Source: a virus (Duplodnaviria; Caudoviricetes). From it: a stretch of DNA of 64,000 bases. The position numbers were made by a program, and so were the translations under genes. The stretch is from the IMG/VR virus record IMGVR_UViG_3300033068_001067, positions 2,312-66,311 of that record. The stretch is one strand, 5' to 3'. How positions within the stretch are numbered: the stretch's first letter is position 1; every line of letters begins with the position of its first letter. Below, piece by piece: positions 48,834-63,235 of the stretch. A model generated the notes under the pieces. It was not told the origin of the DNA, did not search any database, and was given only the letters and a program-made list of their open reading frames with translations.

Positions 48834-49262
48834 ATGGATTTACTATTAAAAAGAACGACTAAGACAGATAAAAGTACTATTGGTGAATTGTACATCAACG
48901 GTACATTTGAGTGCTATATTTTAGAAGATGTTGATAGGGGTTTATCTTCATCAATGCCTTTGGCTGAACTTCAAAAAAAGAAAGTGTATGCCAAAACAGC
49001 AATCCCAACAGGTAAGTATGAAATAGTAATTAGTTTCTCAAATCGCTTCAAAAAACTATTACCATTAGTTGCTAACGTACCCGCTTACGAAGGCATAAGA
49101 ATACATGCAGGTAACACAGCAGAACATACAGAAGGCTGTTTATTGCCCGGCACAAGTAAAGCCGCAAACTTTGTTGGGAATAGCAGAACTGCCTTCAATA
49201 ACTTATTCAAGAAAATACAGACAGCAGTTAAAAAAGAAAAGGTGTTTATTGAGATAGTTTAA
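48834..49262 (+). CDS. putative endolysin, DUF5675 family
   Basis: STIGELYING...TAIPTGKY...GIRIHAGNT...TEGCLLPG. Confidence 0.8.
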   Translation: MDLLLKRTTKTDKSTIGELYINGTFECYILEDVDRGLSSSMPLAELQKKKVYAKTAIPTGKYEIVISFSNRFKKLLPLVANVPAYEGIRIHAGNTAEHTEGCLLPGTSKAANFVGNSRTAFNNLFKKIQTAVKKEKVFIEIV

Positions 49263-49794
49263 GCGATACCAATTCCAACTTGCTTCTATACTCAATCAAT
49301 AATTCTCGCAAATCCGATACAGATAGCTTATTTATGGAGTGTGCCATTTCATCAACATACTCTAATGCTTCGGGGTGTTCTTTTTTTAGTCTATCCCTAA
49401 ATATTTCGGGGTGGGTCTCATGTTTTGAATTACATTTTGGGCATTGCACCCTCACTCCACCTTCATAATATCTGCTACCCATATCAGCCCTACTCCCTAC
49501 ATGCCCACATTGAGATTGCTTCCAATTCATAACTTCATCACAGGTATAACAACTAACTTCCCCCCTATTATTAGCATACTTAATTCTGATGTATTTTGAA
49601 AAAACTGCATCCAATTCATCCCTTAAATTAGCCCAACTTTCATCTGAAAAATCTCGTTCCATTCTCTTATCCGAAACCCTTTTAATAGGCTTATACCCTT
49701 TACTTGCACACATCTTGCATCTTCCCTTAGAGAAAGCGAAATCGTAATGCCCACAAGCTAACTGACGCTTCTTAGGTTTTATTGTTGAGTTCAT
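49246..49794 (-). CDS. ninG: NinG/Rap-like recombination endonuclease
   Basis: LDAVFSKYIR...CYTC...QCGH...QCPKCN. Confidence 0.8.
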   Translation of the reverse strand: MNSTIKPKKRQLACGHYDFAFSKGRCKMCASKGYKPIKRVSDKRMERDFSDESWANLRDELDAVFSKYIRIKYANNRGEVSCYTCDEVMNWKQSQCGHVGSRADMGSRYYEGGVRVQCPKCNSKHETHPEIFRDRLKKEHPEALEYVDEMAHSINKLSVSDLRELLIEYRSKLELVSLKLSQ

Positions 49795-50621
49795 AAACGG
49801 ATTTGATTAAGTGGTGACGGAGTTCTGCTGATTAAATTATGTGAAATGTGGGTATAAATTCGGGTCGTATTTAAGTTTTGATGACCGCATAGCTTTTGAA
49901 TTATTGAAATATCAGTTCCTTGTTCTAAAAGATGTGTCATAGTACAATGCCTAATTAAATGGGTATATACTCTTTTATTGATTTTTGCTTTCTCCGCTAG
50001 TTGCTTAATAACTTGACCTACACTTCTTTCTGAATATTGTAATTCATCCTTCCACCCATTTAGTACATACACTTTACTTTTATACTCCTTCCAATAATCT
50101 TCAAGCAATCCGATAACGGAACTACTTAGCATGACTTGCCTATCTCTTTTCCCCTTAGCTTGAATTACATTAATAATCATCCTACTTCTATCAATGTGTT
50201 CCCACTTCAAATTAATCAATTCTGAAACTCGCAAGCCGCAAGAATAAAGCAACCCTAAAATTACTCGATGTTTTTTATTGTCGCAAACATCAAACATTCT
50301 TTGTATCTCCCCAACTGATAAAACTATGGGTAATTTGTTCTCTTTTCGAGCATATTGAATGTATTTAAACTTTTGCTTTTGATTCATGCAAATGTCATAG
50401 AACTTTTTAATTGCACTATGGTAATTCCTTTGAGTATTAACCGTTGAAAATTTACACAAGAAATCTTTAATATCTTGTTCATTGATATTCTTTGGGTGGT
50501 CTTTATCCACTTTTGAGAAAAATACATCAATACATGAAGCATAATTATCAATAGTATTTTGACAGTAATTTCTACGTTTCATTTCTTGAATGAATCTACC
50601 CTTATGTTTACATATATTCAT
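49791..50621 (-). CDS. tyrosine recombinase (SAM-like N-domain + catalytic domain) adjacent to the cassette array
   Basis: LPIVLS; GLRVSE (R); AKGKRDR (K); HLIRH (HxxR); CGH (H); IYTH (Y); C-terminal SPL; no IntI-type ALERKY insertion. Confidence 0.93.
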   Translation of the reverse strand: MNICKHKGRFIQEMKRRNYCQNTIDNYASCIDVFFSKVDKDHPKNINEQDIKDFLCKFSTVNTQRNYHSAIKKFYDICMNQKQKFKYIQYARKENKLPIVLSVGEIQRMFDVCDNKKHRVILGLLYSCGLRVSELINLKWEHIDRSRMIINVIQAKGKRDRQVMLSSSVIGLLEDYWKEYKSKVYVLNGWKDELQYSERSVGQVIKQLAEKAKINKRVYTHLIRHCTMTHLLEQGTDISIIQKLCGHQNLNTTRIYTHISHNLISRTPSPLNQIRL

Positions 50622-51243
50622 AGTTTATAAATTTTAGTTTTTTTGGTTGGTTCATAACTTCTTTATAAAAGCACTTCAACGCAACTATGTGGGCATTCCT
50701 CGTATTTTTGTTTTTTATTAGTCCTATGTAATGCCTAATTTCATTTTGATTAATTTCTTTTGGCGACTTTTTTTTACCTTCAAATTCAGAAATAAACCTT
50801 TTAATGTATGAAATAAAATTTCTTTTGCTATTCTTTGAGTAAGAACTTTTCTCAAGGCAAAAACGAAATTTTGCTATGTAAATAGAGTTTTTCTTTACTC
50901 TGTAATAATTATTACCCCCACCTCCTAAATTCCCATTTAGTAAATTACTTATGCCTAATTTACTTATCCATTCCTTTTCTTTAAAACTTGCTTGTTCGGT
51001 TGGTACAGTTTCTAATACTTCAATTATGGGGAGTAACCCAACTATTGCTAATTCACGTATCCATAAATTTTTCTTTGAGTTAGTGCTATTTCTTTTTGAT
51101 ATATGTAAATAAAGCCTTTGCTTTATTGGCAAATACGTCTTGCCTATATACCTTATTGATTTAGTCAACGGGCATGAAAGCGAATAAATATAGGTTGTAG
51201 TTATATTCTGAATTAAATTAACTAACCGTTCAGAAGTAGGCAT
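50608..51243 (-). CDS. GIY-YIG nuclease fused to an integrase N-terminal (SAM-like) domain
   Basis: YIYSL...IRYIGKT...R...E...N; C-terminal half aligns by eye with residues ~5-90 of the neighbouring recombinase. Confidence 0.8.
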   Translation of the reverse strand: MPTSERLVNLIQNITTTYIYSLSCPLTKSIRYIGKTYLPIKQRLYLHISKRNSTNSKKNLWIRELAIVGLLPIIEVLETVPTEQASFKEKEWISKLGISNLLNGNLGGGGNNYYRVKKNSIYIAKFRFCLEKSSYSKNSKRNFISYIKRFISEFEGKKKSPKEINQNEIRHYIGLIKNKNTRNAHIVALKCFYKEVMNQPKKLKFINYEYM

Positions 51244-51272
51244 AGTAAATTATTGGTTTTGAATTAATTAAA

Positions 51273-51301
51273 TAACGTGCGGGACATATTTTATGTTAAA
51301 T
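51273..51301 (+). other. candidate attI-like primary site (first GTT at 51295)
   Basis: Recombinase-proximal GTT with no attC hairpin before it; ACATA/TATGT mini-palindrome. Confidence 0.35.
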
Positions 51302-51340
51302 CGAAAGCCCTCCACAAAAGCCATCCCTTCGCTTTCGATT

Positions 51341-51434
51341 TAACGAGTAGGATTTTTTCCGTTTACGAAAGCCCTTCGGGCCTTCGTTTAACAATGGATT
51401 TTATCCATTGAAACGGAAAAAATCCTACTCGTTA
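51341..51434. repeat. attC-like site 0: perfect 24-bp inverted repeat with two internal hairpins
   Basis: TAACGAGTAGGATTTTTTCCGTTT / AAACGGAAAAAATCCTACTCGTTA. Confidence 0.8.
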
Positions 51435-51443
51435 CCTGCAAGG

Positions 51444-51686
51444 CTAACTGCATCGGTTAGCGACAGCCTTCCAACAATTACAATCACTACACATTTCATT
51501 TCTATTTTCAGTTTGACAAAATTTCAAATCCACAGTTAAGTAAATTAATTCCTTTGTCAATTCGTGGTATTTTTCGTAGGCTCTTTTGATTTCCATATTC
51601 TTAAAATCAACTAATGGAAAATCTGTTTTTAGTTTCTCAATTTTACTTTCTATCGTTTTAAGCCTTCTTTTTTTCTTTTGTAACAT
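51444..51686 (-). CDS. cassette 1 cargo: hypothetical protein
   Basis: Single ORF between GTT 51431 and AAC 51729. Confidence 0.65.
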   Translation of the reverse strand: MLQKKKRRLKTIESKIEKLKTDFPLVDFKNMEIKRAYEKYHELTKELIYLTVDLKFCQTENRNEMCSDCNCWKAVANRCS

Positions 51687-51724
51687 CGTTTTTAAATTAA
51701 GTTCCTACTGATAAACCGCCCAGC

Positions 51725-51817
51725 AGGTAACAGCGGTTTGGCAAAAGCCGCCATAAACATTCTGCAAACTTTAAACTTTTCGTTAGGCAGCCTTCGCCAA
51801 GCCGCAAAACGTTAGGT
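51725..51817 (+). repeat. attC-like site 1
   Basis: AAC-A-GCGGTTTGGC...GCCAAGCCGC-AAAAC-GTT. Confidence 0.88.
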
Positions 51818-51835
51818 GCAATGCCAGCGGACACC

Positions 51836-52549
51836 CTAAAACATTCGGAGTTGGCTGACAAAATCTTTAAAACGCTTTTCTTGTGCTTCATAATAATCTT
51901 TATCTATTTCAAATCCAGTAAAATCAAACCCACCTTTATTACAGGCAATTCTACTGCTACCACTTCCAACGTGAGTATCTAAAATCAAATCACCTTCTTT
52001 GGCATAATTTGATAATAACCAATCATACAATGCCACAGGCTTTTGAGTTGGGTGTATTCTTTGCTCTTTGTCTTTCATATTGTGTTGCAACATTCCGTGC
52101 CAAGTAATATTTACAAAGTCTATTTTTTGCAACCAACTCAACCAAGCAAGTTCGCCAGTGCTATAAGTTGGCATTGTTACGTTTTTATGCCAATAAAGCA
52201 TACCGCCAACTAATCCAAAGAAATTTGCACCCCACACTATTTGTTTTTTAGATACTCTTTTTAACTCATTAAAATAATCTTCGTTTGGCGTTTCGTTATC
52301 CCAATTTGTTTTTTTATAGGTATTAATTTTAGCCAAAGAAGTTTTTTCGTGCCTATCACTATTTTTGCCATTGTTTTTAATATCGGCATTTATGCCATAA
52401 GGCGGGTCAACTATTGCAAGGTCAAAGTAATTATCAGAAAAGCGTTTTAAACCCTCTACACAATCCTCATTATACACCACAGAAGGCACTGCACCTAACA
52501 CGGTATTGGCAAAATTGCCGTTCTGTTTTTCAATTAAACTTTCGTCCAT
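51836..52549 (-). CDS. cassette 2 cargo: orphan N4-C/N6-A DNA methyltransferase (beta class)
   Basis: DLAIVDPPYG motif IV; HPTQKP; LDTHVGSGSS motif I; start lies inside attC2. Confidence 0.92.
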   Translation of the reverse strand: MDESLIEKQNGNFANTVLGAVPSVVYNEDCVEGLKRFSDNYFDLAIVDPPYGINADIKNNGKNSDRHEKTSLAKINTYKKTNWDNETPNEDYFNELKRVSKKQIVWGANFFGLVGGMLYWHKNVTMPTYSTGELAWLSWLQKIDFVNITWHGMLQHNMKDKEQRIHPTQKPVALYDWLLSNYAKEGDLILDTHVGSGSSRIACNKGGFDFTGFEIDKDYYEAQEKRFKDFVSQLRMF

Positions 52550-52616
52550 AATTTCAACTTTTGTTTTTCAATTTAGCTTTCGGTTCGGCAATTTCGCCAA
52601 TACCCATACGTTGTGT
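52493..52616 (+). repeat. attC-like site 2
   Basis: AAC-AC-GGTATTGGCAAAATTGCCG...CGGCAATTTCGCCAATACC-CATAC-GTT. Confidence 0.88.
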
Positions 52617-52625
52617 GCAAGGCTT

Positions 52626-52859
52626 CTACTCGACAATCCCTAAACTGTCAATGTACTTCTTGGCATAATCGCAACACATTTTGACAGAGCCTTGTTTATC
52701 ATCTTTAAAATCATAGGCAACTTCATCTATTGCTTTATGAATTTCAGCGTGTAACTCACACATTGCTTTTAAGTTTTCAAGAATGTTATAATCTTTTGAA
52801 GCGTCACCTTTTGGACGAATATCGCCAATCAACTTTTTAACTACATCATAATTTGTCAT
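52626..52859 (-). CDS. cassette 3 cargo: hypothetical protein
   Basis: ORF within cassette; start set at MTNY. Confidence 0.65.
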   Translation of the reverse strand: MTNYDVVKKLIGDIRPKGDASKDYNILENLKAMCELHAEIHKAIDEVAYDFKDDKQGSVKMCCDYAKKYIDSLGIVE

Positions 52860-52882
52860 CTTTCTAATTTTGCCCGCCCTGC

Positions 52883-53014
52883 ACACAACAAAAGGTTTTG
52901 CGTTATGTGGGCGTAATGTTATAGGCTCATCATTTTATCTCAAATCAACACAGTATGTATGTGGGCAGACGAGCCTTGAATACCCACACAAACGCAAAGC
53001 CTTGAACGTTAGCG
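52883..53014 (+). repeat. attC-like site 3
   Basis: AAC-AA-AAGGTTTTGCGTT...AACGCAAAGCCTT-GAAC-GTT. Confidence 0.85.
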
Positions 53015-53248
53015 GTCAGTACTACCAGTATTCAAGTTCAACAGTCTTTGACCAAGTTTTTTATGGTTCTCCCATTCTTCATCTGACAAATTACTTAAAC
53101 AGTCAGGCTTTTCACCTTGTATGGTTTTTAGTATTGACAATTCAGTTTCATTGTTAAGCTCTTTTAACATTGAATGTGACTTATCTAAAACCATATCATT
53201 TAAGGTATTTAGATTGTCAAATGCGGAGTGATACTTTTTGTCTTGCAT
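53009..53248 (-). CDS. cassette 4 cargo: hypothetical protein
   Basis: ORF whose TAA stop overlaps the GTT box. Confidence 0.65.
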   Translation of the reverse strand: MQDKKYHSAFDNLNTLNDMVLDKSHSMLKELNNETELSILKTIQGEKPDCLSNLSDEEWENHKKLGQRLLNLNTGSTDR

Positions 53249-53297
53249 AATTGTATATTTTAATTTTAATGTTTCTATTTTTTTACTCGTGCCGAAC

Positions 53298-53409
53298 CGC
53301 TAACAAACGGTTTGGCAAAATACGGGGTGAAGTGCAGAGTCGAACGATTATAAAGCCAAGCATAAGTAACAGTCATTGCCCGTACTTCGCCAAGCCGCAA
53401 ACGTTGGCT
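53298..53409 (+). repeat. attC-like site 4
   Basis: AAC-AAA-CGGTTTGGCAAAATACGGG...CCCGTACTTCGCCAAGCCG-CAAAC-GTT. Confidence 0.88.
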
Positions 53410-53415
53410 GCAATA

Positions 53416-53637
53416 CTACAACTTTTCAATTTCGGCTTTGACTTCTATCCAAAAAGTTAAGCGTTGTTCCTCAAAAGGACTTGACGCATCGCAATCGTTT
53501 ATCAATTCATGAACTGTCATTAAAGCACATTGTTTTGACATTTCAAATCCTTCGCCTCTTAATCTTACATTTTCAAACGATATTATTTTATCGTTTATTT
53601 TTTTAAGTAATTCTACAGCTTTTGCTTGCGGTGACAT
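53416..53637 (-). CDS. cassette 5 cargo: hypothetical protein (MSPQAKAVEL...FWIEVKAEIEKL type)
   Basis: ORF within cassette; start set at MSPQ. Confidence 0.7.
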   Translation of the reverse strand: MSPQAKAVELLKKINDKIISFENVRLRGEGFEMSKQCALMTVHELINDCDASSPFEEQRLTFWIEVKAEIEKL

Positions 53638-53677
53638 ATTTTTTATTTTGACAGTTACTAATCTTTTACCGTACAGC

Positions 53678-53774
53678 AGCCAACAAAAGTATTGCTGCAA
53701 GTAGGGCTTGACCAGCATTGCTCAACAGTAGTTTTCCAAATTCCCTACCTGACAGCAATACTCGGTCGTTAGCT
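53678..53774 (+). repeat. attC-like site 5
   Basis: AAC-AAA-AGTATTGCTG...CAGCAATACT-CGGTC-GTT. Confidence 0.88.
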
Positions 53775-53960
53775 GCTACTATTACCAGCCTTTACAGTTT
53801 CGGAATTAACAAGTATAAGTGTTAAGTCTAACGATTCAATATATCTTGTTTTTACCTTGCCCCTTCTTATCCAGTTGCTTAAAACTTGCCTTGATATATT
53901 TTTCTGCTTAGTGTATTGCCACATGGTAGCCCATTTGTCAGTATCAATTTTAACTACCAT
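53769..53960 (-). CDS. cassette 6 cargo A: small HTH (excisionase-like) protein
   Basis: QYTKQKNISRQVLSNWIRRGKV HTH pattern; stop overlaps the GTT box. Confidence 0.6.
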   Translation of the reverse strand: MVVKIDTDKWATMWQYTKQKNISRQVLSNWIRRGKVKTRYIESLDLTLILVNSETVKAGNSSS

Positions 53961-54078
53961 TTTTTATGTTTTAGATTAAATATTTCATCTTGTGATTCAC
54001 GAATATTGCCCATAAGTTGAATTATCAGCCATAATAAAAAACAATTTACAATTAATGAAATAATAAGTATTGTAATCA

Positions 54079-54309
54079 TTATAAGTATTTTACAAGTTTT
54101 AATTCTCCGTTTATTTCTTTTACCCACTCATAACCATCAACATTTTCGTCTTTCCATGTTTTAGCGTTTACCATGAAGTATAAACCTTCTTCATTCTGAT
54201 TTTTCACAAGATTTATCACTTTACCACGCTGACCATGTAGTTTGTAAGCAACTGCACTATTTACTTCGTTTACTTTTTCTACTTTGTAATTGTTGATTTG
54301 CTGTGTCAT
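54079..54309 (-). CDS. cassette 6 cargo B: hypothetical protein
   Basis: ORF directly downstream of a promoter. Confidence 0.65.
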   Translation of the reverse strand: MTQQINNYKVEKVNEVNSAVAYKLHGQRGKVINLVKNQNEEGLYFMVNAKTWKDENVDGYEWVKEINGELKLVKYL

Positions 54310-54325
54310 AATTTGAATGTTTATG

Positions 54326-54356
54326 CAAATATAATATTGTTTACATTGCAAACAAA
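54326..54356 (-). promoter_or_regulatory. Bacteroidota-type promoter inside cassette 6 (TTTG-N19-TATATTTG)
   Basis: Minus-strand -33 box at 54353-54356 and -7 box at 54326-54333. Confidence 0.6.
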
Positions 54357-54389
54357 ATATTTTTAAACTTTTTTATTGCACATAGCAGC

Positions 54390-54485
54390 AGCTAACATCG
54401 TATTGGCAAAACAAGGGCTTGACAAATAAATCCAAGCACCAGTTTTTCAAATTCCCTTGCTTCGCCAATACGTCCAACGTTAGGT
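54390..54485 (+). repeat. attC-like site 6
   Basis: AAC-AT-CGTATTGGCAAAACAAGGG...CCCTTGCTTCGCCAATACG-TCCAAC-GTT. Confidence 0.88.
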
Positions 54486-54491
54486 GCAATG

Positions 54492-54740
54492 CTAAAGACC
54501 GTTAATCAATTTCATTATCGTTTGACGACCTTCTTCTTTAGCTTTTTTAATATCCTCAATAGTTTTGTCTTGAATATCAAAAACGTTTTTGTTTGCTACA
54601 TAACCATCACCTGCTTGTGGTAAATGGTCGTGGCATATCCATTTGAACTCTCTACACGTTTTTTCACGTTCATCGTAGTATTCGTCTAACTTAGTCAAAG
54701 CTAAATTCAGAATGTCTTTTTCTTTATTCGTAAGTTTCAT
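54492..54740 (-). CDS. cassette 7 cargo: hypothetical protein
   Basis: ORF within cassette; start set at MKLT. Confidence 0.65.
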   Translation of the reverse strand: MKLTNKEKDILNLALTKLDEYYDEREKTCREFKWICHDHLPQAGDGYVANKNVFDIQDKTIEDIKKAKEEGRQTIMKLINGL

Positions 54741-54767
54741 ATTTTTAAAATTAGGGAGAAGCACTGC

Positions 54768-54899
54768 ACCTAACAAGGTATTGCCAAAAGCAGGACATTC
54801 TCGGTTAATTAATCATTTGTACTTCTATGGGGCATTTGTGCAAGGTTTAGACTTTTTGCTTCTAAATCCCTGCCTTCGGCAATACCCGAACCGTTATGC
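54768..54899 (+). repeat. attC-like site 7
   Basis: AAC-AA-GGTATTGCCAAAAGCAGG...CCTGCCTTCGGCAATACC-CGAACC-GTT. Confidence 0.88.
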
Positions 54900-54911
54900 C
54901 TCATTGCTACC

Positions 54912-55232
54912 TTACTGCTCCGAAACAGGTTTTTTGCCAAGCATATTCATCACTATACTTGATTTGTTTGGATAGTTCTTAGCAAGGTGAAAAAAGAATT
55001 GGTCAATATTTACACCTTCTTCTATTCTACATTTTGAAAGCACATCATATAAATTAGTAGTTACATTTCTCCCATCAACATCGGGGTAAATACAAGTAGT
55101 GCAAAAATCAAAATCTGCATACTGAAATTCTGCAAACATTGGTATTTGTTCGGCTTTACATATCTCTATGATTTTTGCCATTAGTGGAGCAATTTGCTCA
55201 TCGTAAATCTGTTCTTTATTTTTCATTTTCAA
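54912..55232 (-). CDS. cassette 8 cargo: conserved phage hypothetical protein
   Basis: NKEQIYDEQIAPLMAKIIEICK...IPM start; fills the cassette. Confidence 0.7.
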   Translation of the reverse strand: MKMKNKEQIYDEQIAPLMAKIIEICKAEQIPMFAEFQYADFDFCTTCIYPDVDGRNVTTNLYDVLSKCRIEEGVNIDQFFFHLAKNYPNKSSIVMNMLGKKPVSEQ

Positions 55233-55264
55233 ATTAATTTAATCGTTAATAAACCGCAACGAAG

Positions 55265-55350
55265 GCATAACAGCGTATAAAGTAAACCGCCAATACCTAC
55301 CCACGAAGCCAACGCAATTGTCGGCTTCCCTTATACGCAAACCGTTAGGC
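55265..55350 (+). repeat. attC-like site 8
   Basis: AAC-A-GCGTATAA...TTATACGC-AAACC-GTT. Confidence 0.82.
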
Positions 55351-55356
55351 GATATG

Positions 55357-56046
55357 CTAAAACAACCGCACTTGCGAAACGAAATCATCGTATCTTTTGC
55401 ACGATTTATTAAAATATTCTTCGTCAATTTCACAACCAACAAAATTTAGTTTATACTTATTAGCAGAAATCCTTGAACTTCCAGAACCTAAATGTGTATC
55501 TAAAACCTTTGAGCCTTCTTCTAATTTTGAATAATCAAAACAAAAATCATATAATTCAATAGGTTTTTGGGTTGGGTGAAACCTTTTTAAATCAGTGCTT
55601 TGTTTTCGTATTATCTTACTTGGTTTGTCAAATGACGTCCATACTAATTCACAAGCAGAAAAAGTAGGCATAGATTGTACTTTGTCCCAGCAAATGAAAC
55701 CTCTTGTATTTGGTAAATATTCTAAAAAGTAATTAGCCCCAAAAATAATTTGGTCTTTTGAAACTCTAAATAATTCTAACCAATACTCTTCTTGCGGTAA
55801 AATATCCCACTTTGAACTATCTCTATAAAGTGTTGCAAAAGGACTGTTTTTATGTTTGCCACCTCTTTCAGTTAGTTTTTCGCCCAATCCATAAGGCGGG
55901 TCGCAAATTGCTAAATCAAAGTATTTATCGGGGTAATGTTTCATAAGTTGAATATTATCCATTAAATAAACCTCCGAAGAAGCACAATCGCCTAACACGT
56001 GTTTGGAGCAATGCGGGGATTTGTCTTTAATTTTATTATCAGTCAT
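55357..56046 (-). CDS. cassette 9 cargo: second orphan N4-C/N6-A DNA methyltransferase (beta class)
   Basis: DLAICDPPYG; HPTQKP; LDTHLGSGSS; start lies inside attC9. Confidence 0.92.
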   Translation of the reverse strand: MTDNKIKDKSPHCSKHVLGDCASSEVYLMDNIQLMKHYPDKYFDLAICDPPYGLGEKLTERGGKHKNSPFATLYRDSSKWDILPQEEYWLELFRVSKDQIIFGANYFLEYLPNTRGFICWDKVQSMPTFSACELVWTSFDKPSKIIRKQSTDLKRFHPTQKPIELYDFCFDYSKLEEGSKVLDTHLGSGSSRISANKYKLNFVGCEIDEEYFNKSCKRYDDFVSQVRLF

Positions 56047-56123
56047 TGTTTTTAAGTTTAGTTTTTAATTGAAAAATTGGTGCATTTTTAGCCCGCACTG
56101 CACCAAGCACGAGAACGTTGGCT
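55990..56123 (+). repeat. attC-like site 9
   Basis: AAC-A-CGTGTTTGGAGCAATGCGGG...CCCGCACTGCACCAAGCACG-AGAAC-GTT. Confidence 0.88.
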
Positions 56124-56124
56124 G

Positions 56125-56379
56125 CTATACTACAACCCCATTCATTTTAAGTTCCGCCCTTAAACGTATTAATTCACGATTGACTTTAAGCAGTTCTTGC
56201 TCATATTCATTACGCTGAATTTTGACACGTTTACACTCTTTTTTTATTTCTTCATTAACGCCATTGGAAAATTCAACCATTACTTCCATTACTTTTTTTT
56301 CGCCAAATTCACCATAAGCGGAAAATCCTTCTTCGTTGTAAAAAACACCCCATCTTTTTAAGAAATTTAATGCACTCAT
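56125..56379 (-). CDS. cassette 10 cargo: hypothetical coiled-coil protein
   Basis: ORF fills the cassette. Confidence 0.65.
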   Translation of the reverse strand: MSALNFLKRWGVFYNEEGFSAYGEFGEKKVMEVMVEFSNGVNEEIKKECKRVKIQRNEYEQELLKVNRELIRLRAELKMNGVVV

Positions 56380-56421
56380 ATTTTATATTTTGATATTTTA
56401 AAATTTATCTTACCGTACAGC

Positions 56422-56508
56422 AGCCAACAATGTGTTTTACGCAAGGGCGGACACAGTACGCAGGTTGAAATTGCTTTATTGCCCCTGCGTAAAGCACCAC
56501 CGTTAGCC
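56422..56508 (+). repeat. attC-like site 10
   Basis: AAC-AAT-GTGTTTTACGCAAGGGC...GCCCCTGCGTAAAGCAC-CACC-GTT. Confidence 0.88.
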
Positions 56509-56514
56509 GTAATG

Positions 56515-57138
56515 CTATGATACACCACGAGCAAAATCTATTGCCATTTGTTTTGCATCTTCAATAGTTTTAGCAACCCATTTTCCTTTACCCCATTTCG
56601 TAGGATATTCAGAAAATACACCACTTATTTGACCTCTCATTTTTTCGTTTGGAGTTTTATCATCATAAGTATAACGTACCCAAACCCCTAATTTACCATC
56701 TTGTTCACCTTCTTCGGCAACAGGATTTAATTTATGTGTTTCATCCATATCTGTATCACCCAAAAATCGCAAACAATCTTCTAAAAATTCTTCTTTGTTG
56801 GATGGCTCATAATGGCAATGCCCTTTCTTACATTCACTTCCTATACCAAAGCCAAATATTGCTCTATGAGACCAACCGTACCACTTTTGTTCTATCGGGT
56901 TAAACCCTATACAACTTGTTGTTGGTTCGCCATATCCATCTTGTATTTGTTCAGTAATACCTCTTTTAAATAAAAACTCTAAGTTTTTTTCTGAACCTAC
57001 TCTACCTAAATAAGAACCATCTACTTTTGAGTAGTATATTTTACCTGCATCATCAGGTATAGTTGAATCACCAATTATTGCAATTGAGTTTATAAACTGT
57101 TGCAATTTTTTAGACACTTGTTTTTTTGTTTTAAACAT
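56515..57138 (-). CDS. cassette 11 cargo: conserved phage hypothetical protein (207 aa)
   Basis: GFNPIEQKWYGWSHRAIFGFGIG...AKTIEDAKQMAIDFARGVS. Confidence 0.75.
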   Translation of the reverse strand: MFKTKKQVSKKLQQFINSIAIIGDSTIPDDAGKIYYSKVDGSYLGRVGSEKNLEFLFKRGITEQIQDGYGEPTTSCIGFNPIEQKWYGWSHRAIFGFGIGSECKKGHCHYEPSNKEEFLEDCLRFLGDTDMDETHKLNPVAEEGEQDGKLGVWVRYTYDDKTPNEKMRGQISGVFSEYPTKWGKGKWVAKTIEDAKQMAIDFARGVS

Positions 57139-57181
57139 ATACTTTGATTTTTAAATGATTTTGAATTTTATAAAGCACTAC

Positions 57182-57236
57182 GGCTAACAGCGGTTTGGCG
57201 ACATTAAAACGACCGCCAAGCCGCAAAACGTTGAGC
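57182..57236 (+). repeat. attC-like site 11 (terminal, shortest)
   Basis: Arms identical to site 1: TAACAGCGGTTTGGC / CGCCAAGCCGCAAAACGTT. Confidence 0.9.
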
Positions 57237-57253
57237 AATATTCTTAACGATAG

Positions 57254-57469
57254 CTAATCCCATATTGCACTAAATTTATCCCAGCCTGTGTAGTTCTCTT
57301 TTGGTTCTTTAAATCCGTATTGCTTCATGGTTTCAGACTTGTCTTTTGAGTTTTGAGCATCTTTTATGGCATTGTGATAGTTTGTTTCAGCTACCCAAAT
57401 TAAACCAATAGTTAATATGGCAAAGAATATACATAAGCCTTGTACAAATAGTTTTAGTAGTTGTTTCAT
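57254..57469 (-). CDS. small membrane protein
   Basis: One N-terminal TM helix. Confidence 0.65.
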   Translation of the reverse strand: MKQLLKLFVQGLCIFFAILTIGLIWVAETNYHNAIKDAQNSKDKSETMKQYGFKEPKENYTGWDKFSAIWD

Positions 57470-57475
57470 GGTTGA

Positions 57476-57781
57476 TTAAGATAAATTGTTGGTTAATTGT
57501 AACGCATGGGCGGTGCTTAGTTTTTGCACCCTTTCTAGCCTATCAAAGCAGTCATAGTACCATTGCATTATACGGGAGTGAATCTTACTATACCGTTCTA
57601 TTCTTTTAGTGAAATCACTCTCTCTGTATATCAATTTAATGGTAGCGAAAGGGTCTTTTGTTGCATGGTATAGATTAAGGTCGCTAACTGCTTCGTCCTG
57701 CCTATTCTTAGCCCTTATTGCTAAATCTAGTATATCAATACATCTTTCATGTAGCTTTAACTGTGCGGTTTCTCTGCCCAT
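57476..57781 (-). CDS. hypothetical early protein
   Basis: ORF; start set at MGRE after the AAAGACAAAATG leader. Confidence 0.6.
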   Translation of the reverse strand: MGRETAQLKLHERCIDILDLAIRAKNRQDEAVSDLNLYHATKDPFATIKLIYRESDFTKRIERYSKIHSRIMQWYYDCFDRLERVQKLSTAHALQLTNNLS

Positions 57782-57935
57782 TTTGTCTTTGGTTTTTTTG
57801 GTTACGAAAATATAAGATAAAGAACTGCAATAAACGCTAACCATCCCACTATTTCATGCAGCCAATTATTCATTCTAGGGTCGTTATCGGGGGCATTGTA
57901 TCTGTCTATTTGGTCTGAAATTACTTTTGCCATAA

Positions 57936-58184
57936 TTAGTAGCTTTTTGAATTGTTAAGAAAGTTTTTGCTCTTATCGGGGTTAAGTCCTTTTAGTGTTC
58001 TTGTATGTGCTGAAATTAGCGGTAAATTGATAGGGTACTGTTCATCCATTTCTTGGTCGGTAAGCATTTTGCCATCGGGCAATATCCATACATTCACCCC
58101 ATTCATAGGTACTCCACTACTGTTTATTCTTAGCATCTTATTGTGGCAATACTCGGAGTAGGTTAAGGTTGTCTTTCTTGTCAT
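57936..58184 (-). CDS. hypothetical early protein
   Basis: ORF with AAAGACAATG leader. Confidence 0.6.
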   Translation of the reverse strand: MTRKTTLTYSEYCHNKMLRINSSGVPMNGVNVWILPDGKMLTDQEMDEQYPINLPLISAHTRTLKGLNPDKSKNFLNNSKSY

Positions 58185-58196
58185 TGTCTTTGGTTT

Positions 58197-58385
58197 TTAA
58201 CGTGCTAAATGTTGTTGCCAATAGTTGTTTTGCTTTTCATCAATCTTTTTTGTAAGGTGGTATATTTTACGGTCTGCATCCCTTTCTGTAACCTTGTCTC
58301 CGGTTTCTATTGCCTGTTGTAGCTTTCTTTGTAGGGCTGCTCTCTGAAATACCCACTTGCTTAGTTCTCCCGTTTTTGATTGCAT
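58197..58385 (-). CDS. hypothetical early protein
   Basis: ORF; start set at MQSK. Confidence 0.55.
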   Translation of the reverse strand: MQSKTGELSKWVFQRAALQRKLQQAIETGDKVTERDADRKIYHLTKKIDEKQNNYWQQHLAR

Positions 58386-58440
58386 AAAATTAGTTTTTGT
58401 GGTTAAATAATCAATCAACTTTTAAACTTTTAATCAGATT

Positions 58441-58632
58441 TTAAGTATCAACTAAAATGAAAATTTTGTTTTTGCTTTTCATATAATCGAATGGTGGATG
58501 CCCTGCAATACCCTTTTCATACTTTTTAATTAGCCTGTATTTGTACTGCAAACTACATGGGAATCCACTTCGATTAAGATGTACATAATCTTCTATCGGT
58601 ATTACTTTTCTTTCTTTTACTTCGTTACTCAT
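58441..58632 (-). CDS. small basic protein, possibly DNA-binding
   Basis: ORF with AAAGACAATG leader. Confidence 0.55.
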   Translation of the reverse strand: MSNEVKERKVIPIEDYVHLNRSGFPCSLQYKYRLIKKYEKGIAGHPPFDYMKSKNKIFILVDT

Positions 58633-58770
58633 TGTCTTTTCTTTGGTGGGTTTAAAATATATTCTGTTGCTGTTCTTATTCCATTCCAATCAAGGGCTAT
58701 CCAATACCATGCTTTGCACCAATAGCCGTCTTTACCGAAATGGATAAAAGGAAGTTTGATTTTCATAGCT

Positions 58771-58989
58771 TTATTGGTTAAAATTGTAGGTTCTTGAGTA
58801 TTGCAGTACGGGGTTTGCGAATGTGCCTACTTCCCACATTATTGTATTTTTATCAATATCAATCTTACCTGTGTGTTGGTCGTTTTCTATACCCCACTTC
58901 TCAATAAATGCCTTTGCTTTATTAATGCTTTTAAAGGTATGCTTTGCCCCTGTCTTAGCTTCTTTAACTGTATGGATGTACTTTGCCAT
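58771..58989 (-). CDS. hypothetical early protein
   Basis: ORF with AAAGACAATG leader. Confidence 0.6.
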   Translation of the reverse strand: MAKYIHTVKEAKTGAKHTFKSINKAKAFIEKWGIENDQHTGKIDIDKNTIMWEVGTFANPVLQYSRTYNFNQ

Positions 58990-59009
58990 TGTCTTTGTCG
59001 TTTTATGGG

Positions 59010-59381
59010 TTAATTAATAGGGGATAATACTATCCCATTTTCTTTTGAATATGGTCTATTATCTTTTTTTATCGGTCTTGGTTCTTTTGCGTTTATATCA
59101 AAATACACATTCCCTTCCCCGTACATCTCTTTGTATTTTTGGAATTGCTGCAACTCTTTTTCATTAAGTACTTTAACTTCTTTTTCTTGGCAGTTTATTT
59201 GATAGCCGTAGGGGGTCATTGTGTTGGTTCTAATCCCTATCCATCCCTTATCAGTACAACCTGTTGTGAATGGGTGTGTTGCTTCTCCTATAACTCCATT
59301 TAAGCAGCTATCGTTTCTGTCTTTAATGTTTACAATAGCAACAATGCTATTTACATCTATGTTAGTTTGCCCTGCTTTCAT
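59010..59381 (-). CDS. hypothetical early protein
   Basis: ORF in early block. Confidence 0.6.
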   Translation of the reverse strand: MKAGQTNIDVNSIVAIVNIKDRNDSCLNGVIGEATHPFTTGCTDKGWIGIRTNTMTPYGYQINCQEKEVKVLNEKELQQFQKYKEMYGEGNVYFDINAKEPRPIKKDNRPYSKENGIVLSPIN

Positions 59382-59417
59382 TTTTTTATTGTTTTAATTG
59401 TTAAGTTAATAAAGGGG

Positions 59418-59636
59418 TTAATTAATTATTCCCATTTCAGCATCTTGCAATTCTGCTATTTTTGCTAAGTCTTCACTTAATTGGCTATAATCCCCCTCAA
59501 CTGAATTAATTAGCAATTGTAATGCTTCAACTTTACTACTATGTTTTGTATAGTCATTGTAAAGCATTTCTTCAAATATATCTAAGTTATCAATATTGAA
59601 GTTTTCTAGTAATTGTTGTGCTGTTTTTTTTGTCAT
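59418..59636 (-). CDS. hypothetical acidic early protein
   Basis: ORF; leader shared with the next gene. Confidence 0.6.
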   Translation of the reverse strand: MTKKTAQQLLENFNIDNLDIFEEMLYNDYTKHSSKVEALQLLINSVEGDYSQLSEDLAKIAELQDAEMGIIN

Positions 59637-59922
59637 TGTCTTTTAGTTTAATTGGTTAAGAGTAAGAAAGTTCAAAATCTCCACTATATTCATTCGGTGT
59701 AAAATCTTCCAATTCTATACCATTTACATGATGCTGAAAATCGTTGATGCAAGTTAATAAAGCCATTTTTTGACAATCATTTGCCCATGCCCCTTTAGTT
59801 GGCATTAATTCTAGTACTTTCTCAATATCTTGAGATAAAGCAGTTAATTTGTCTTTTACCTGCTCAAATTGTCTTTGCTGTGCTGTTTTGTTTGCCATTG
59901 TTTTTTAGTTTAATTGGTTAAG
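59617..59922. repeat. 44-bp direct repeat (41/44) covering leader and first codons of two adjacent genes
   Basis: Copies at 59617-59660 and 59879-59922. Confidence 0.8.
59656..59898 (-). CDS. hypothetical early protein
   Basis: ORF bounded by the 44-bp repeat. Confidence 0.6.
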   Translation of the reverse strand: MANKTAQQRQFEQVKDKLTALSQDIEKVLELMPTKGAWANDCQKMALLTCINDFQHHVNGIELEDFTPNEYSGDFELSYS

Positions 59923-59936
59923 GTTATTTAGTGTTG

Positions 59937-60185
59937 TTAGTTAATTAAAGTGCCTTTATGCTCTTTGCCGTCTTTGTCTCTTACTGTTACCCATGTAATA
60001 GTTTCAGTACCATTAATGCCATTAGATAAGTCAATAGATATGTTTTGGGTGCTTACTCCTATTACTTCACCTGTTACTTCTGAATAATCAGATTTTTTAA
60101 TGGTGGCTATTGTCTTTTCTTCATCTTCAAGCAATTTACTTACTGCTTTATCAAATTCATAGAACGAGTAATTCTCTTGTCTCAT
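59937..60185 (-). CDS. hypothetical early protein
   Basis: ORF in early block. Confidence 0.6.
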   Translation of the reverse strand: MRQENYSFYEFDKAVSKLLEDEEKTIATIKKSDYSEVTGEVIGVSTQNISIDLSNGINGTETITWVTVRDKDGKEHKGTLIN

Positions 60186-60206
60186 TTTTTTTGTTTTAGT
60201 GGGTGG

Positions 60207-60512
60207 TTAAATGTTTTGTGGGTTATGGCTTAAAATGACTTTATCCCCCCAATATGCCAACATCCCATTTTCATGTATATGTGGCTCGTGTACTTCAACC
60301 TTACCCCTTGTTTCGCTGTATTTGTTCCAATTGCCTACGGTTGTAAGTTCTTTGTATTTGCTTACTTCTCTTTCAAATTCATTATAGGCTGTTTTTAAGC
60401 CTTCTTTACCTGCATAAACAGTAGTTACGCTTCTAAGGCTTTCCCATTTTTTTAAACGCTTATTGTAAGCATTTACATAAGAAACTAATTGATAAATTTT
60501 AACTGCTTTCAT
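60207..60512 (-). CDS. hypothetical early protein
   Basis: ORF downstream of a promoter. Confidence 0.6.
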   Translation of the reverse strand: MKAVKIYQLVSYVNAYNKRLKKWESLRSVTTVYAGKEGLKTAYNEFEREVSKYKELTTVGNWNKYSETRGKVEVHEPHIHENGMLAYWGDKVILSHNPQNI

Positions 60513-60549
60513 TGTATTTTGTTTTTAGTGGTTAAATGTTTTTGTCTTA

Positions 60550-60598
60550 CAAATGTAGTTTAGATATTCAACTTTTAAACTTAAATTTAGCTTAAAAT
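60550..60598 (-). promoter_or_regulatory. early promoter (TACATTTG) with AACTTTTAAACTT upstream motif
   Basis: -7 box at 60550-60557; motif shared with 58415, 61829 and 63954. Confidence 0.6.
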
Positions 60599-60784
60599 AT
60601 TGTACAAATTAAATTCTAGCTTTCGGATATTGAACTTTCTTTTGTCGGGGTTACGTTCAAACTGTCTAAATTCTAAGGGAGAAATAACCTGCATCAAAAA
60701 AGTATCTGTATCAAATTTACCCACTTTTGCCCCGTCTTTAAAAACATAGGTCAATTCTCCGCTTATTTGTATTGTGTAGGTCAT
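60587..60784 (-). CDS. hypothetical early protein
   Basis: ORF in early block. Confidence 0.55.
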   Translation of the reverse strand: MTYTIQISGELTYVFKDGAKVGKFDTDTFLMQVISPLEFRQFERNPDKRKFNIRKLEFNLYNILS

Positions 60785-61071
60785 AGTTTAACAAATTTGT
60801 CAAACCCTATAAACTTTCTATGTGTAACTGTCTCACCTTCTTTTAAATGGTAAAATTGCCCACTACTAACATTTATTCGCTTTTTAGTATTTAGCTTTAT
60901 TTCTGCTCCTGTATGGGCTGCAATATAAAAACCATTTACTTCGCTACCGTCTGCAATTTCATCATTTTGCCCTTCAAAAATTAAATGGTATTTACTGCCA
61001 TCTAACGAAGTATATAAACGGCATGTATAGCCTGTTTCTACGTCTGTATATGTTCTTTGTGTTGGTTGCAT
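60781..61071 (-). CDS. hypothetical early protein
   Basis: ORF in early block. Confidence 0.6.
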   Translation of the reverse strand: MQPTQRTYTDVETGYTCRLYTSLDGSKYHLIFEGQNDEIADGSEVNGFYIAAHTGAEIKLNTKKRINVSSGQFYHLKEGETVTHRKFIGFDKFVKL

Positions 61072-61083
61072 GAGTAGTTGTTT

Positions 61084-61488: not shown

Positions 61489-61526
61489 GTGTCTTTAGTT
61501 TTAGATTGATTAAATAAGTTAGTGTA

Positions 61527-61549
61527 GAAAAACAACCTTACGGGGTTGT
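61527..61549 (-). terminator. possible minus-strand terminator
   Basis: ACAACC/GGTTGT stem with an A run on the + side. Confidence 0.4.
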
Positions 61550-61562
61550 AGCGGGGGGTTGA

Positions 61563-61787: not shown

Positions 61788-61828
61788 AGCTTATGTTTTT
61801 TGGTTAAATGATAATGTAAAGATAAGTT

Positions 61829-62039: not shown

Positions 62040-62061
62040 TGGTTTATGTTTTATAGGTGGG

Positions 62062-63215: not shown

Positions 63216-63235
63216 GTGTTTAGTTTTAATGGTTA

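Follow-up and report, generated by a model that had tools for sequence, protein, structure and literature searches.

To which gene does a recombination hairpin belong when it lies in front of a gene and not behind it? The question is raised by a Flavobacterium-type phage of the virulent type, whose DNA was analyzed as one window (the whole stretch of 64,000 nucleotides). At positions 51295–57232, this phage carries an integron-like row of small accessory genes in which a recombination hairpin stands 5′ of each gene. The row consists of an unpaired head GTT, 12 hairpins of the AAC...GTT type, and 11 cassettes. In our judgment, it is probably an integron-like array of cassettes in which the genes have reversed polarity and the hairpin would serve both as recombination site and as portable 5′ expression module. 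The anatomy of the sites, the positions of the junctions in relatives, and the conservation of the reading frame are established at the level of sequence.

Layout of the Array and Its Cargo

The array head (51295–51344, plus strand) begins with an unpaired GTT (51295–51297) in an attI-like position, which faces the recombinase genes; behind it comes a mini-cassette that contains no gene but a perfect 14-nt inverted repeat. Comparable unpaired head GTTs are found in Muminvirus (TGTAG|TTA) and in LR756502.1. The opposite, distal end is formed by a short full hairpin (S11, 57186–57232). Every cargo ORF lies without exception on the minus strand, in the same direction as the early genes and the recombinase (49791–50621); transcription runs toward the head GTT and the recombinase, and the head is the downstream end of the operon. 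These features agree with the sequence-only reading, which had described the cargo as entirely antisense and had placed an unpaired GTT next to the recombinase and a full hairpin at the distal end.

The cassette next to the head holds a gene of 80 aa with unassigned function (51444–51686), which has its own ATG 43 nt left of site S1. In LR756502.1, the shell of this cassette (leader, S1 hairpin, and end repeats) encloses an unrelated 61-aa ORF. It is followed by DNA methyltransferase 1 (N6_N4_Mtase, 51836–52549), genes of 77 aa (52626–52859, own ATG) and 79 aa (53009–53248), a 73-aa gene (phrog_21441, 53416–53637) whose frame is also open up to ATG 53718 in the S5 loop, and a multi-ORF cassette (53769–54351; ORFs 53769–53960, 53954–54127, and 54079–54309). 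Farther from the head lie genes of 82 aa (54492–54740, own ATG) and 104 aa (phrog_20111, 54912–55226, between S7 and S8), DNA methyltransferase 2 (N6_N4_Mtase, 55357–56046), an 84-aa gene (56125–56379) in a shell like that of cassette S4–S5, and a Tad6-family gene (type I Thoeris inhibitor family; Pfam PF25188, 8.7e-42) at 56515–57138. Two ORFs other than the methyltransferases had been proposed to stop within a core, and this is what is found: 53009–53248 and 53769–53960 end on the TAA of the S3 and S5 cores, respectively, which is the complement of TTA in their GTTA.

Anatomy and Folding of the Sites

The 12 sites (47–126 nt) share the attC design of an imperfect hairpin with outer AAC/GTT triplets and a variable loop. 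The polarity AAC-A...C-GTT on the plus strand, noticed beforehand, can be read in 11 of 11 sites (S1–S11), while the twelfth, S0 (51342–51433), is a symmetric, branched, perfect hairpin; the pairing partner of its right flank (GTTACCTGCA) is the left flank of S1. S1 (51729–51813) is an imperfect hairpin with a copy at 88% identity in LR756502.1; S3 (52887–53010), S5 (53682–53770), S6 (54394–54481), and S8 (55269–55346) are imperfect hairpins located between minus-strand ORFs. S2 (52497–52612, 116 nt) has a 19-bp stem on the minus strand and a loop made up of an A-rich leader and an ATG. The loop of S9 (55994–56119, 126 nt) holds an ATG and a leader that resembles those of other early genes, and S7 (54772–54895) has a long loop with no in-frame gene start. 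Inspection of the loops read, by eye only, found no promoter motif of the Bacteroidetes type (TTTG...TAnnTTTG).

Compared with shuffled sequence, most sites fold with a z of about −2 to −5; S4 (53302–53405) and S10 (56426–56504) are weak, and S0 reaches −13. The minus (gene-sense) strand is the better folder in 8 of 11 sites, with continuous stems of 15–21 bp, which matches the expectation for a folded “bottom” strand. No conserved extrahelical or bulged bases, as known from attC, were found in the predicted stems; the asymmetry of the sites lies in spacers of 1–3 versus 4–5 nt and in one A.C (plus strand) or G.T (minus strand) position. The ends of the cassettes are complementary: the 10 nt that follow a GTT and the 10 nt that close with the next AAC are reverse complements of each other at 9–10 of 10 positions, in all 10 cassettes from S1 to S11 and also in S0–S1. 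As in integrons, the sequence after G|TT thus pairs with the far end of the next cassette.

Probable Start Codons inside the Hairpin Loops

Both methyltransferases were originally proposed to begin in the loop of the hairpin on their right. The ATG of methyltransferase 1 (52549) indeed lies in the S2 loop, residues 1–22 being derived from loop, left arm, core, and end repeat, and the ATG of methyltransferase 2 (56046) lies in the S9 loop, preceded by AATTAAAAACTAAACTTAAAAACA. The proposed hairpin-encoded N-termini, NGNFANTVLGAV and SPHCSKHVLGDC, are present in the translations. Other potential starts are GTG codons following the core in methyltransferase 1 and internal in-frame ATGs 20 and 14 codons before DPPY in methyltransferase 2. 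Among 156 viral homologues of the two enzymes (42 with and 114 without hairpin), the first in-frame ATG falls inside the hairpin at 41 of the 42 hairpin-bearing loci, which holds true for 15 of 16 hairpin types, and at 23 of those 41 loci it is the sole ATG before DPPY. The hairpin-less homologues mostly have their own ATG, 26 or 31 codons before DPPY. When a homologue with its own ATG and no hairpin (L024) is compared with one that has a hairpin and no own ATG (L023), the difference lies exactly at the end repeat. Such a comparison of sequences strongly supports the loop ATGs as start codons of the hairpin-bearing methyltransferases. The hairpin-derived peptides look like tolerated linkers, not like a conserved functional peptide, and the reading frame differs among hairpin types.

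With the S2 loop alone as query, the S2 hairpin was also found in 21 other viral contigs. In four other metagenomes, it occurs on high-depth short contigs, which end at both hairpin edges. In 19 of the 21 contigs, the ORF that begins with the loop ATG is at least 170 aa long (PF01555, MT-A70, and Dam families as well as an unknown 197-aa protein), and four unrelated protein families bear the loop peptide MDESLIEKQNGNFANTVL as an in-frame fusion. It is because the hairpin precedes its gene that the loop can hold an A/T-rich leader and an ATG. Given the loop start and the approximately 20 added residues, the hairpin would also be a portable 5′ expression module, which could be grafted in frame onto unrelated genes.

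Which Hairpin Edge Moves

Junctions were compared in eight cultured Muminvirus/Lillamyvirus genomes and in LR756502.1, a 642-kb phage. Near-identical cultured Flavobacterium phages (Muminvirus), and likewise the 642-kb phage, differ by whole cassettes, and gains, losses, and one duplication have as their borders G|TT at the right (plus-strand) hairpin edge. For instance, mumin9-2 and mumin6-3 differ by a 506-nt cassette with ...GATAACG|TTATGC at one boundary and ...CCAAACG|TTAACC at the other; AACGTTA are the only bases that the two share. The filifjonk gp004 cassette, with its hairpin on the right, is inserted at the head GTT; a block of three cassettes, among them a methyltransferase with loop ATG, has its end at the right edge of this methyltransferase's hairpin; and a duplicated 72-nt unit in LR756502.1 begins in each copy exactly at a GTT behind a hairpin. 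Where near-identical phages differ by a simple indel, it is located at the right edge in three of three cases, most of the homology breakpoints (n = 121) fall at AAC|GTTA, and right-edge events are about twice as frequent as left-edge events in Muminvirus. The most variable position is just after the head GTT, where eight genomes show six different sequences. Natural indels and the duplication thus place the crossover at G|TT, as in integrons, with a minority of junctions at the other edge. Since the cuts are mostly at G|TT on the right hairpin edge, a moving gene usually takes along the hairpin on its upstream side. The flanks vary accordingly: the Muminvirus hairpin clusters H1, H8, and H14 combine a constant left flank with 5, 2, and 2 kinds of right flank, respectively, and H12 has 4 kinds on the right versus 2 on the left.

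Exchanges at the left AAC edge are a minority but real, with breakpoints precisely there. One hairpin is found on different genes and one gene on different hairpins, joined exactly at this edge: a methyltransferase bears different hairpins in filifjonk and hemulen, one hairpin occurs with three different left flanks, and H10 is replaced by H35 between identical flanks. Such swaps, together with the 7 different contexts that adjoin the S2 hairpin at G|TTA on the gene side and the short metagenome contigs that end at both edges of this hairpin, would fit an organization in which hairpins and gene segments are independent modules. In that case, either strand could be folded and cut, the AAC and GTT edges would both be crossovers, the hairpin would belong to neither neighbor, and selection would keep in-frame loop starts after exchange. 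We consider this unlikely, as flank variability is clearly unequal (19 groups in 20 flanks on the GTT, or right, side of S2-type hairpins versus 7 groups in 22 flanks on the gene side), and the doubled frequency of right-edge events and the position of all three simple indels likewise speak against it. The initial proposal that the recombination site is a translation-initiation module traveling with its gene therefore holds for most exchanges, those at the right edge, and fails for the hairpin/gene swaps at the left one. The observations on which it was built are confirmed, and the interpretation is supported with two qualifications, namely the incomplete linkage of hairpin and gene and the apparent role of the peptides as tolerated linkers.

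The Adjacent Recombinase

In the direction of transcription, the array is followed by a Xer-like tyrosine recombinase of 276 aa (49791–50621, minus strand; Pfam Phage_integrase 7e-35 and SAM_4). Its best NCBIfam model is of the XerA type (200 bits, cut-off 220), while the integron integrase model TIGR02249 reaches 166 bits (cut-off 265) in two stretches. In the PDB, IntI4 (2a3v) also aligns in two stretches, with a break at residue 171, and XerA in one; neither comparison revealed the IntI-specific additional domain in the 276-aa protein. Between recombinase and array head, a GIY-YIG nuclease domain (Pfam GIY-YIG, 27.3 bits, residues 1–125) is fused to a copy of the N-terminal (SAM-like) domain of the recombinase (SAM_4, residues 126–200) in a gene at 50608–51243 (minus strand) that was not found in the relatives L001–L003. 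The recombinase adjoins such sites here and in three relatives (59–67% identity). No adjacent array was seen beside its 68–70%-identity homologues in two Bacteroidota MAGs, just one of which has sufficient flanking DNA, so the assignment of recombinase to array rests on adjacency in four contigs. From this neighborhood, the Xer-like enzyme is likely to be the one that exchanges cassettes in this phage.

A PF00589 recombinase was not found in the cultured Muminvirus phages or in LR756502.1, though both carry arrays. Arrays in phages devoid of a tyrosine recombinase would agree with hairpins that are mainly RNA or regulatory elements (mRNA stability, start-site presentation, termination) and are shuffled by homologous or microhomology-mediated recombination with no dedicated recombinase, as PeSL motifs are in T4-type phages (PMC2839356, PMC4122927). 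The G.T pairs, which favor folding of the transcript strand, and the resemblance of the loops to ordinary early-gene leaders point in the same direction. Nevertheless, this explanation appears quite improbable. Junctions between unrelated hairpins share just 7–8 nt (AACGTTA) at one fixed position, the complementary ends of each cassette are a hallmark of the attC R″/R′ boxes that homologous recombination leaves unexplained, the first cassette behind the unpaired head GTT is hypervariable, and inspection by eye of the sequences read found no run of T after the stems.

Proposed Mechanism and Polarity

In the reversed cassette array that we favor, a cassette on the plus strand would read TT-x...(gene, antisense)...x′-AAC-stem-loop-stem-spacer-G. 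On the messenger strand, the unit would run from the hairpin through GTT, a 10–15-nt end repeat, and the gene body to the stop, often in the terminal TAA|C. A site-specific recombinase may exchange such units mainly at G|TT on the right hairpin edge, and the Xer-like tyrosine recombinase would act on the better-folding gene-sense strand; the left AAC edge would be a rarer exchange point. New units would enter at the unpaired GTT beside the recombinase, i.e., at the downstream end of the operon. Translation of the methyltransferases would start in the loop and proceed through left arm, core, and end repeat, thereby adding about 20 residues that hairpin-less relatives are without.

Canonical integron polarity, with the minus strand as top strand, the hairpin belonging to the upstream gene, methyltransferases starting at an internal GTG or ATG after the core, and accidental loop ATGs, would account for the fact that each minus-strand ORF precedes, in the manner of classical cassettes, RYYYAAC (with the stop located in TAA) and then a hairpin, for the GTG codons just past the core in methyltransferase 1, and for the left-edge junctions, but it is disfavored as highly improbable because essentially every contig has a different S2 flank on that side, the hairpin carried along in simple indels is the one upstream of the gene, the array would start on a full hairpin and finish on an unpaired AAC, and the loop ATG is in frame at nearly all loci and across four unrelated protein families. 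The plus strand as canonical top strand, as first suggested, is supported by the array ends, the G|TT junctions in relatives, the variable head, and the better folding of the minus strand.

Comparison with Known Systems

The array resembles integrons, especially sedentary chromosomal ones with uniform attC sites (e.g., the Vibrio cholerae repeats), in its promoterless small genes between imperfect ...AAC/GTT... hairpins, its complementary cassette ends, the crossover at G|TT, stops inside the core, an unpaired insertion site adjoining a tyrosine recombinase, and related hairpins on unrelated genes. Unlike integrons, in which the gene lies upstream of its own attC, in sense on the top strand, with the promoter at the attI end, the phage genes are on the other strand relative to the site, and the hairpin comes first. 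The phage recombinase is short, Xer-like, and below the cut-off of the IntI family; its sites are without bulged bases and owe their asymmetry to the spacers and the A.C/G.T position. Moreover, the phage array has its insertion site at the downstream operon end and leaders and start codons in its loops, and the carrier is a virulent-type phage.

The definition of CALINs (at least two attC and no integron integrase nearby) fits the Muminvirus arrays and LR756502.1, and the array in the window adjoins a non-IntI tyrosine recombinase. The literature searched describes phage attC clusters in scattered instances only (PMC9892861). Qi et al. 2023 predicted only two sites in Polaribacter phage P12002L, of which attC1 did not recombine with IntI1 (PMC9892861). 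P12002L_attC1 is a site of the family found here and lies between two genes for methyltransferases, the typical cargo; its published “bottom strand” is the gene-sense strand (PMC9892861). Qi et al. 2023 did not describe the reversal of polarity as a general rule, the linkage to a Xer-like recombinase, or loop start codons (PMC9892861), and the methyltransferases of P12002L, unlike those of the window, start at their own ATG after the core.

The PeSL of T4-type phages are motifs with promoter and terminator that are thought to act through homologous recombination. Similarly to the sites of the array, these repeated regulatory stem-loops stand beside small early genes in hyperplastic regions, and the insertions, deletions, and replacements that distinguish close phages have their borders at these motifs (PMC2839356, PMC4122927). 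The phage array differs in its junctions at fixed AAC/GTT triplets with 7–8 shared bases, its complementary cassette ends, and its adjacent tyrosine recombinase.

In class 1 integrons, attI1 supplies translation signals (ORF-11; N-terminal fusions of some aac(6′)-Ib cassettes). The likeness is that the region of a recombination site gives initiation, and sometimes a start codon, to a cassette gene without its own. The difference is that a single attI lies upstream of the first cassette, whereas in the phage array each cassette can carry the start module in its own hairpin loop.

Anatomy of the Array and Its Cargo

The source phage record (66 kb, about 92% complete) encodes its structural genes on the + strand up to 49262 and its early genes on the minus strand from 49246 onward. 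The intergenic DNA between 51295 and 57232 forms 11 imperfect hairpins (S1–S11) of 47–126 nt, all 11 of which read AAC-A...C-GTT on the + strand; four of them (S1, S8, S10, and S11) have short loops. Compared with shuffled sequence, most sites fold with z scores of about −2 to −5, while folding is weak in S4 and S10. The head of the array (51295–51433) is organized differently. An unpaired GTT at 51295 opens a 50-nt gene-less unit with a perfect 14-nt inverted repeat, which is followed by S0 (51342–51433), a branched structure with a perfect 24-bp stem around two sub-hairpins (z = −13) that is symmetric (AACG...CGTT), unlike S1–S11. An Rfam scan of 49000–64000 returned no known RNA family, the sole match being a sub-threshold miRNA model on the S0 palindrome.

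In every cassette, the 10 nt past the GTT and the 10 nt that end in the next AAC are reverse complements of each other at 9–10 of 10 positions. In integrons, the outer box of a site is part of the cassette that follows, and the complementary ends found here correspond to this rule. Finding cassettes from the end repeats only was also attempted and dropped as too noisy at 9/11 matches.

The cargo comprises two N6_N4 DNA methyltransferases (51836–52549 and 55357–56046) and about ten small ORFs with no assigned function, all encoded on the minus strand as the sequence-only reading had proposed. That reading had also placed the methyltransferase start codons inside hairpin loops, at ATG 52549 in S2 and ATG 56046 in S9. 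Both ATGs do lie in these loops, and the leader and the two N-terminal peptides quoted with them match the window sequence and its translations. The two ORFs said to stop on the TAA of the core could be identified as 53009–53248 and 53769–53960, each ending on the TAA within GTTA. A further cassette carries a Tad6-family gene (56515–57138, minus strand; Pfam 8.7e-42), a type I Thoeris inhibitor family, and the array is thus a carrier of counter-defence cargo beyond methyltransferases.

The Recombinase and Neighboring Genes

A tyrosine recombinase of 276 aa is encoded on the array-head side (49791–50621, minus strand), with a NinG-like gene beyond it. In NCBIfam it falls below every family cut-off; the best score is to a XerA-type model (200 bits, cut-off 220), and the integron integrase model reaches 166 bits (cut-off 265). 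A structure–sequence alignment covers XerA in one stretch and Vibrio IntI4 in two. The window recombinase is Xer-like. Homologues with 59–67% identity occur in three viral contigs, each with AAC...GTT hairpins on the matching side. Between the recombinase and the array, a 211-aa protein (50608–51243, minus strand) combines a GIY-YIG nuclease domain (Pfam, 27.3 bits, residues 18–95) with a copy of the SAM-like N-terminal domain of the recombinase, and its ORF overlaps the recombinase start by 14 nt. This fusion is absent from all three recombinase-bearing relatives; it could have arrived by homing-type insertion or serve as an accessory factor.

A single-protein scan of bacterial genomes for the recombinase gave no matches. 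An alignment scan found two homologues (68–70% identity) in Bacteroidota MAGs, one from Saprospiraceae (L019, 8001–8828) and one from Ginsengibacter (L018). No AAC...GTT hairpin array was detected beside either of them, L018 giving just about 580 nt on the relevant side. The main role of the enzyme may be a different one, or arrays in these MAGs may have diverged beyond detection.

Polarity of the Sites

Since a near-palindromic site reads AAC...GTT on either strand, the window sequence alone cannot settle the polarity. Analogy with attC bulges or spacer lengths left the question undecidable, and natural junctions were used instead. Cultured Flavobacterium phages from two genera, Muminvirus and Lillamyvirus, were identified by a DNA search; their arrays are of the same kind, having as many as 13 or more sites, up to five methyltransferases, and all genes on one strand. 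No tyrosine recombinase was found in these cultured phages. Their shared segments are 95–100% identical, yet just 22–79% of the array of phage filifjonk is common to each other species.

Among the cultured phages, three simple differences each have borders that coincide exactly with G|TT at a site's right edge. The first is a 506-nt cassette in mumin9-2, whose two junctions share nothing but AACGTTA. The second is the filifjonk gp004 cassette, which has its hairpin on its right and is inserted at an unpaired head GTT. The third is a block of three cassettes; its right border coincides with the right edge of the hairpin holding the ATG of the methyltransferase gp009. Among eight genomes, the head GTT is followed by six different sequences, as expected of an attI-like entry point. 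Furthermore, the 642-kb phage LR756502.1 contains a duplicated 72-nt unit, each copy starting exactly at a GTT behind a hairpin, and a copy of S1 with its leader stands in front of an unrelated gene.

Flank counts point in the same direction. Among hairpin clusters of Muminvirus, a constant left flank combined with several right flanks (H1, H8, and H14) outnumbers the reverse (H9), and the right side of H12 is more variable than its left. Loci collected by methyltransferase homology are unfit for this test because the search itself fixes the gene side; their linkage counts were therefore left out and a 28-nt piece of the S2 loop was searched against viral contigs. In the 21 contigs retrieved, 20 flanks beyond the + strand GTT fall into 19 groups, and 22 flanks on the gene side fall into 7. 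In addition, the minus strand forms continuous 15–21-bp stems and is the more stable of the two strands in 8 of 11 sites, which fits the minus strand as the folded one. The published strand call for P12002L_attC1, a site of a Polaribacter phage, agrees, its "bottom strand" being the sense strand of the flanking methyltransferase genes. The polarity originally proposed, with + as the top strand, stands.

Probable Start Codons within the Hairpin Loops

Ten cassettes of the window and the Muminvirus arrays have a first in-frame ATG that lies 44–71 nt inside a hairpin; nine of them encode methyltransferases of the N6/N4 and C5 types. For a broader comparison, homologues of the two window methyltransferases were collected from 160 viral loci, and the DPPY motif could be placed in 156. 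A hairpin of 116–126 nt covers the 5' end in 42 of these. The first in-frame ATG lies inside the hairpin in 41 of the 42, nearly always 45–53 codons before DPPY, and the distance from the GTT edge to DPPY is 29–31 codons with a single exception at 38. An ATG of their own is present in the 114 homologues that lack a hairpin; its most frequent positions, 26 and 31 codons ahead of DPPY, are those taken by the core and end repeat in the hairpin-bearing forms. Two homologues illustrate this: one has its own leader and ATG (L024, 91% identical), the other a hairpin and no ATG of its own (L023, 86% identical), and they diverge directly past the end repeat. The 42 hairpin-bearing loci represent 16 hairpin types, of which 15 have the loop ATG in frame. 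As the phase of the GTT relative to the codons varies between types, the encoded peptides differ as well.

The loop-only search provides the strongest evidence. In 19 of its 21 contigs, the ORF opened by the S2 loop ATG reaches at least 170 aa, and four kinds of protein carry the identical peptide MDESLIEKQNGNFANTVL as an in-frame fusion, namely PF01555 methyltransferases, an MT-A70 methyltransferase, a Dam-family methyltransferase, and a cysteine-rich 197-aa protein with no assigned function. The frame is kept in six of seven independent gene-side contexts (p ~0.007, a binomial estimate with chance set at one third), a result that would be difficult to account for if translation did not start in the loop.

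It is conceivable that the methyltransferases start at other codons, given that GTG codons follow the core in methyltransferase 1 (51836–52549) and an ATG lies 20 codons before DPPY in methyltransferase 2 (55357–56046). Across the 41 loci, the loop ATG is the sole ATG before DPPY in 23, and elsewhere the extra ATGs fall within the conserved domain. By comparison, the in-frame loop ATG and its fusion to several protein kinds favor the loop codons as the gene starts, in line with the sequence-only reading.

Exchange of Hairpins, Shells, and Gene Segments

That reading also had the hairpin travel with its gene. Right-edge differences and flank counts show that it usually does; the rule is not absolute, as exchanges at the AAC (left) edge exist. 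The same gene (gp009 in filifjonk, gp005 in hemulen) follows different hairpins and is joined exactly at the AAC edge. Other joints at this edge give one hairpin three different left flanks, replace one hairpin between identical flanks, and place the S2 hairpin before seven different gene-side contexts. When filifjonk (L010, 8190–8313) is compared with hemulen (L017, 7428–7551), unrelated hairpins have near-identical flanks on both sides and the same methyltransferase behind them; here, the hairpin alone was exchanged. The overall reading is supported with two qualifications, which concern how exclusively a hairpin follows its gene and which enzyme acts.

A further breakpoint appears to lie inside the genes. 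Among the S2-type contigs (L183–L203, compared with window 52380–52612), 13 are nearly identical over the hairpin and the first ~50 codons up to DPPYG, and past this motif the rest of the methyltransferase is at background DNA identity. This pattern indicates that a second recurrent breakpoint lies just past the catalytic motif, where exchange would replace the rest of the enzyme.

Similar shells also surround unrelated genes. Window 51431–51813 and LR756502.1 (9800–10128) share a shell consisting of the end repeat GTTACCTGCAAGGCTA, the stop context TAG-CCTTGCAGGTAAC, a 43-nt leader, and the S1 hairpin, around two unrelated ORFs of 80 and 61 aa; the similarity begins exactly at the ATG. Cassettes S4–S5 (53403–53684) and S9–S10 (56117–56428) have shells of about 20 nt at both ends, GTTGGCTGC.ATACTACAAC ... 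TTACCGTACAGCAGCCAAC, with unrelated genes inside, and in metagenome contigs the same shells adjoin other contents.

Several studies of fish, river, and wastewater metagenomes yielded short high-depth contigs that are nearly identical to single hairpins. They match window stretches 51608–52627, 53648–53851, 54668–54871, and 57116–57300, and S2 occurs as contigs of 105–114 nt with one mismatch. The hairpin modules are widespread repeats. Of the 20 public runs listed, all of them stored as contigs, four were compared with the window and show hairpin-sized contigs and shell-to-shell joints, a kind of data that cannot reveal excised circles, transcript ends, or expression.

Proposed Mechanism and Implications

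On the messenger strand, a cassette would consist of a hairpin and the gene that follows it. Cassette exchange would be the work of a tyrosine recombinase that acts at the 5'-side triplet of the folded sense strand (G|TT on the + strand) and less often at the mirror position of the other strand. In the window phage this recombinase would be the adjacent Xer-like protein; phages without one would depend on another enzyme, perhaps host-encoded. Located at the early operon's downstream end, the unpaired GTT adjoining the recombinase would be the entry point for new units. A site that precedes its gene can accommodate an A/T-rich leader and an ATG in its variable loop; the left arm, core, and end repeat would then be translated as a tolerated N-terminal linker. 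At the short-loop sites, the start would be left to the gene segment.

We consider it an even call whether Bacteroidota phages harbor a separate, largely undescribed integron-type system, in which the substrates of a Xer-like recombinase are hairpins formed by the gene-sense strand and the hairpin serves as a mobile 5' expression module (leader, start codon, and disposable N-terminal linker), so that any coding segment in frame after G|TT becomes an expressed cassette. If true, the 5'-module reading would also suggest how new cassettes arise; cassette origin is an open question on which the reversed polarity offers a handle. With this polarity, the cassette carries its own start signal, which could explain the expression, wherever they land, of genes without one, mostly anti-restriction methyltransferases. 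One stretch of 116–126 bases appears to be a folded DNA recombination site, a translation start region, and coding sequence, a triple use that is not known from integron attC sites. Gene callers and integron finders will mis-orient such sites and may misplace starts. As the system occurs in cultured, harmless phage–host pairs (Muminvirus and Baltic Flavobacterium strains), each inference is directly testable.

Comparison with Known Systems

Full-text literature searches returned no paper on the system described here. Clusters of attC sites in phages were reported by Qi et al. in 2023, including two sites with methyltransferase cargo in Polaribacter phage P12002L, without a description of reversed polarity, a recombinase, or loop starts (PMC9892861). 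One of the two published sites belongs to the window site family; P12002L_attC2, which lies on the opposite strand and bears no resemblance to the family, was set aside.

The anatomy of the window array is that of an integron, from which it departs in three defining features: the IntI-type integrase, the bulged site bases, and the position of the gene upstream of its own site. A functional parallel in the shuffling of early genes is provided by the PeSL motifs of T4-type phages (PMC2839356, PMC4122927), which lack the fixed-triplet junctions and complementary cassette ends.
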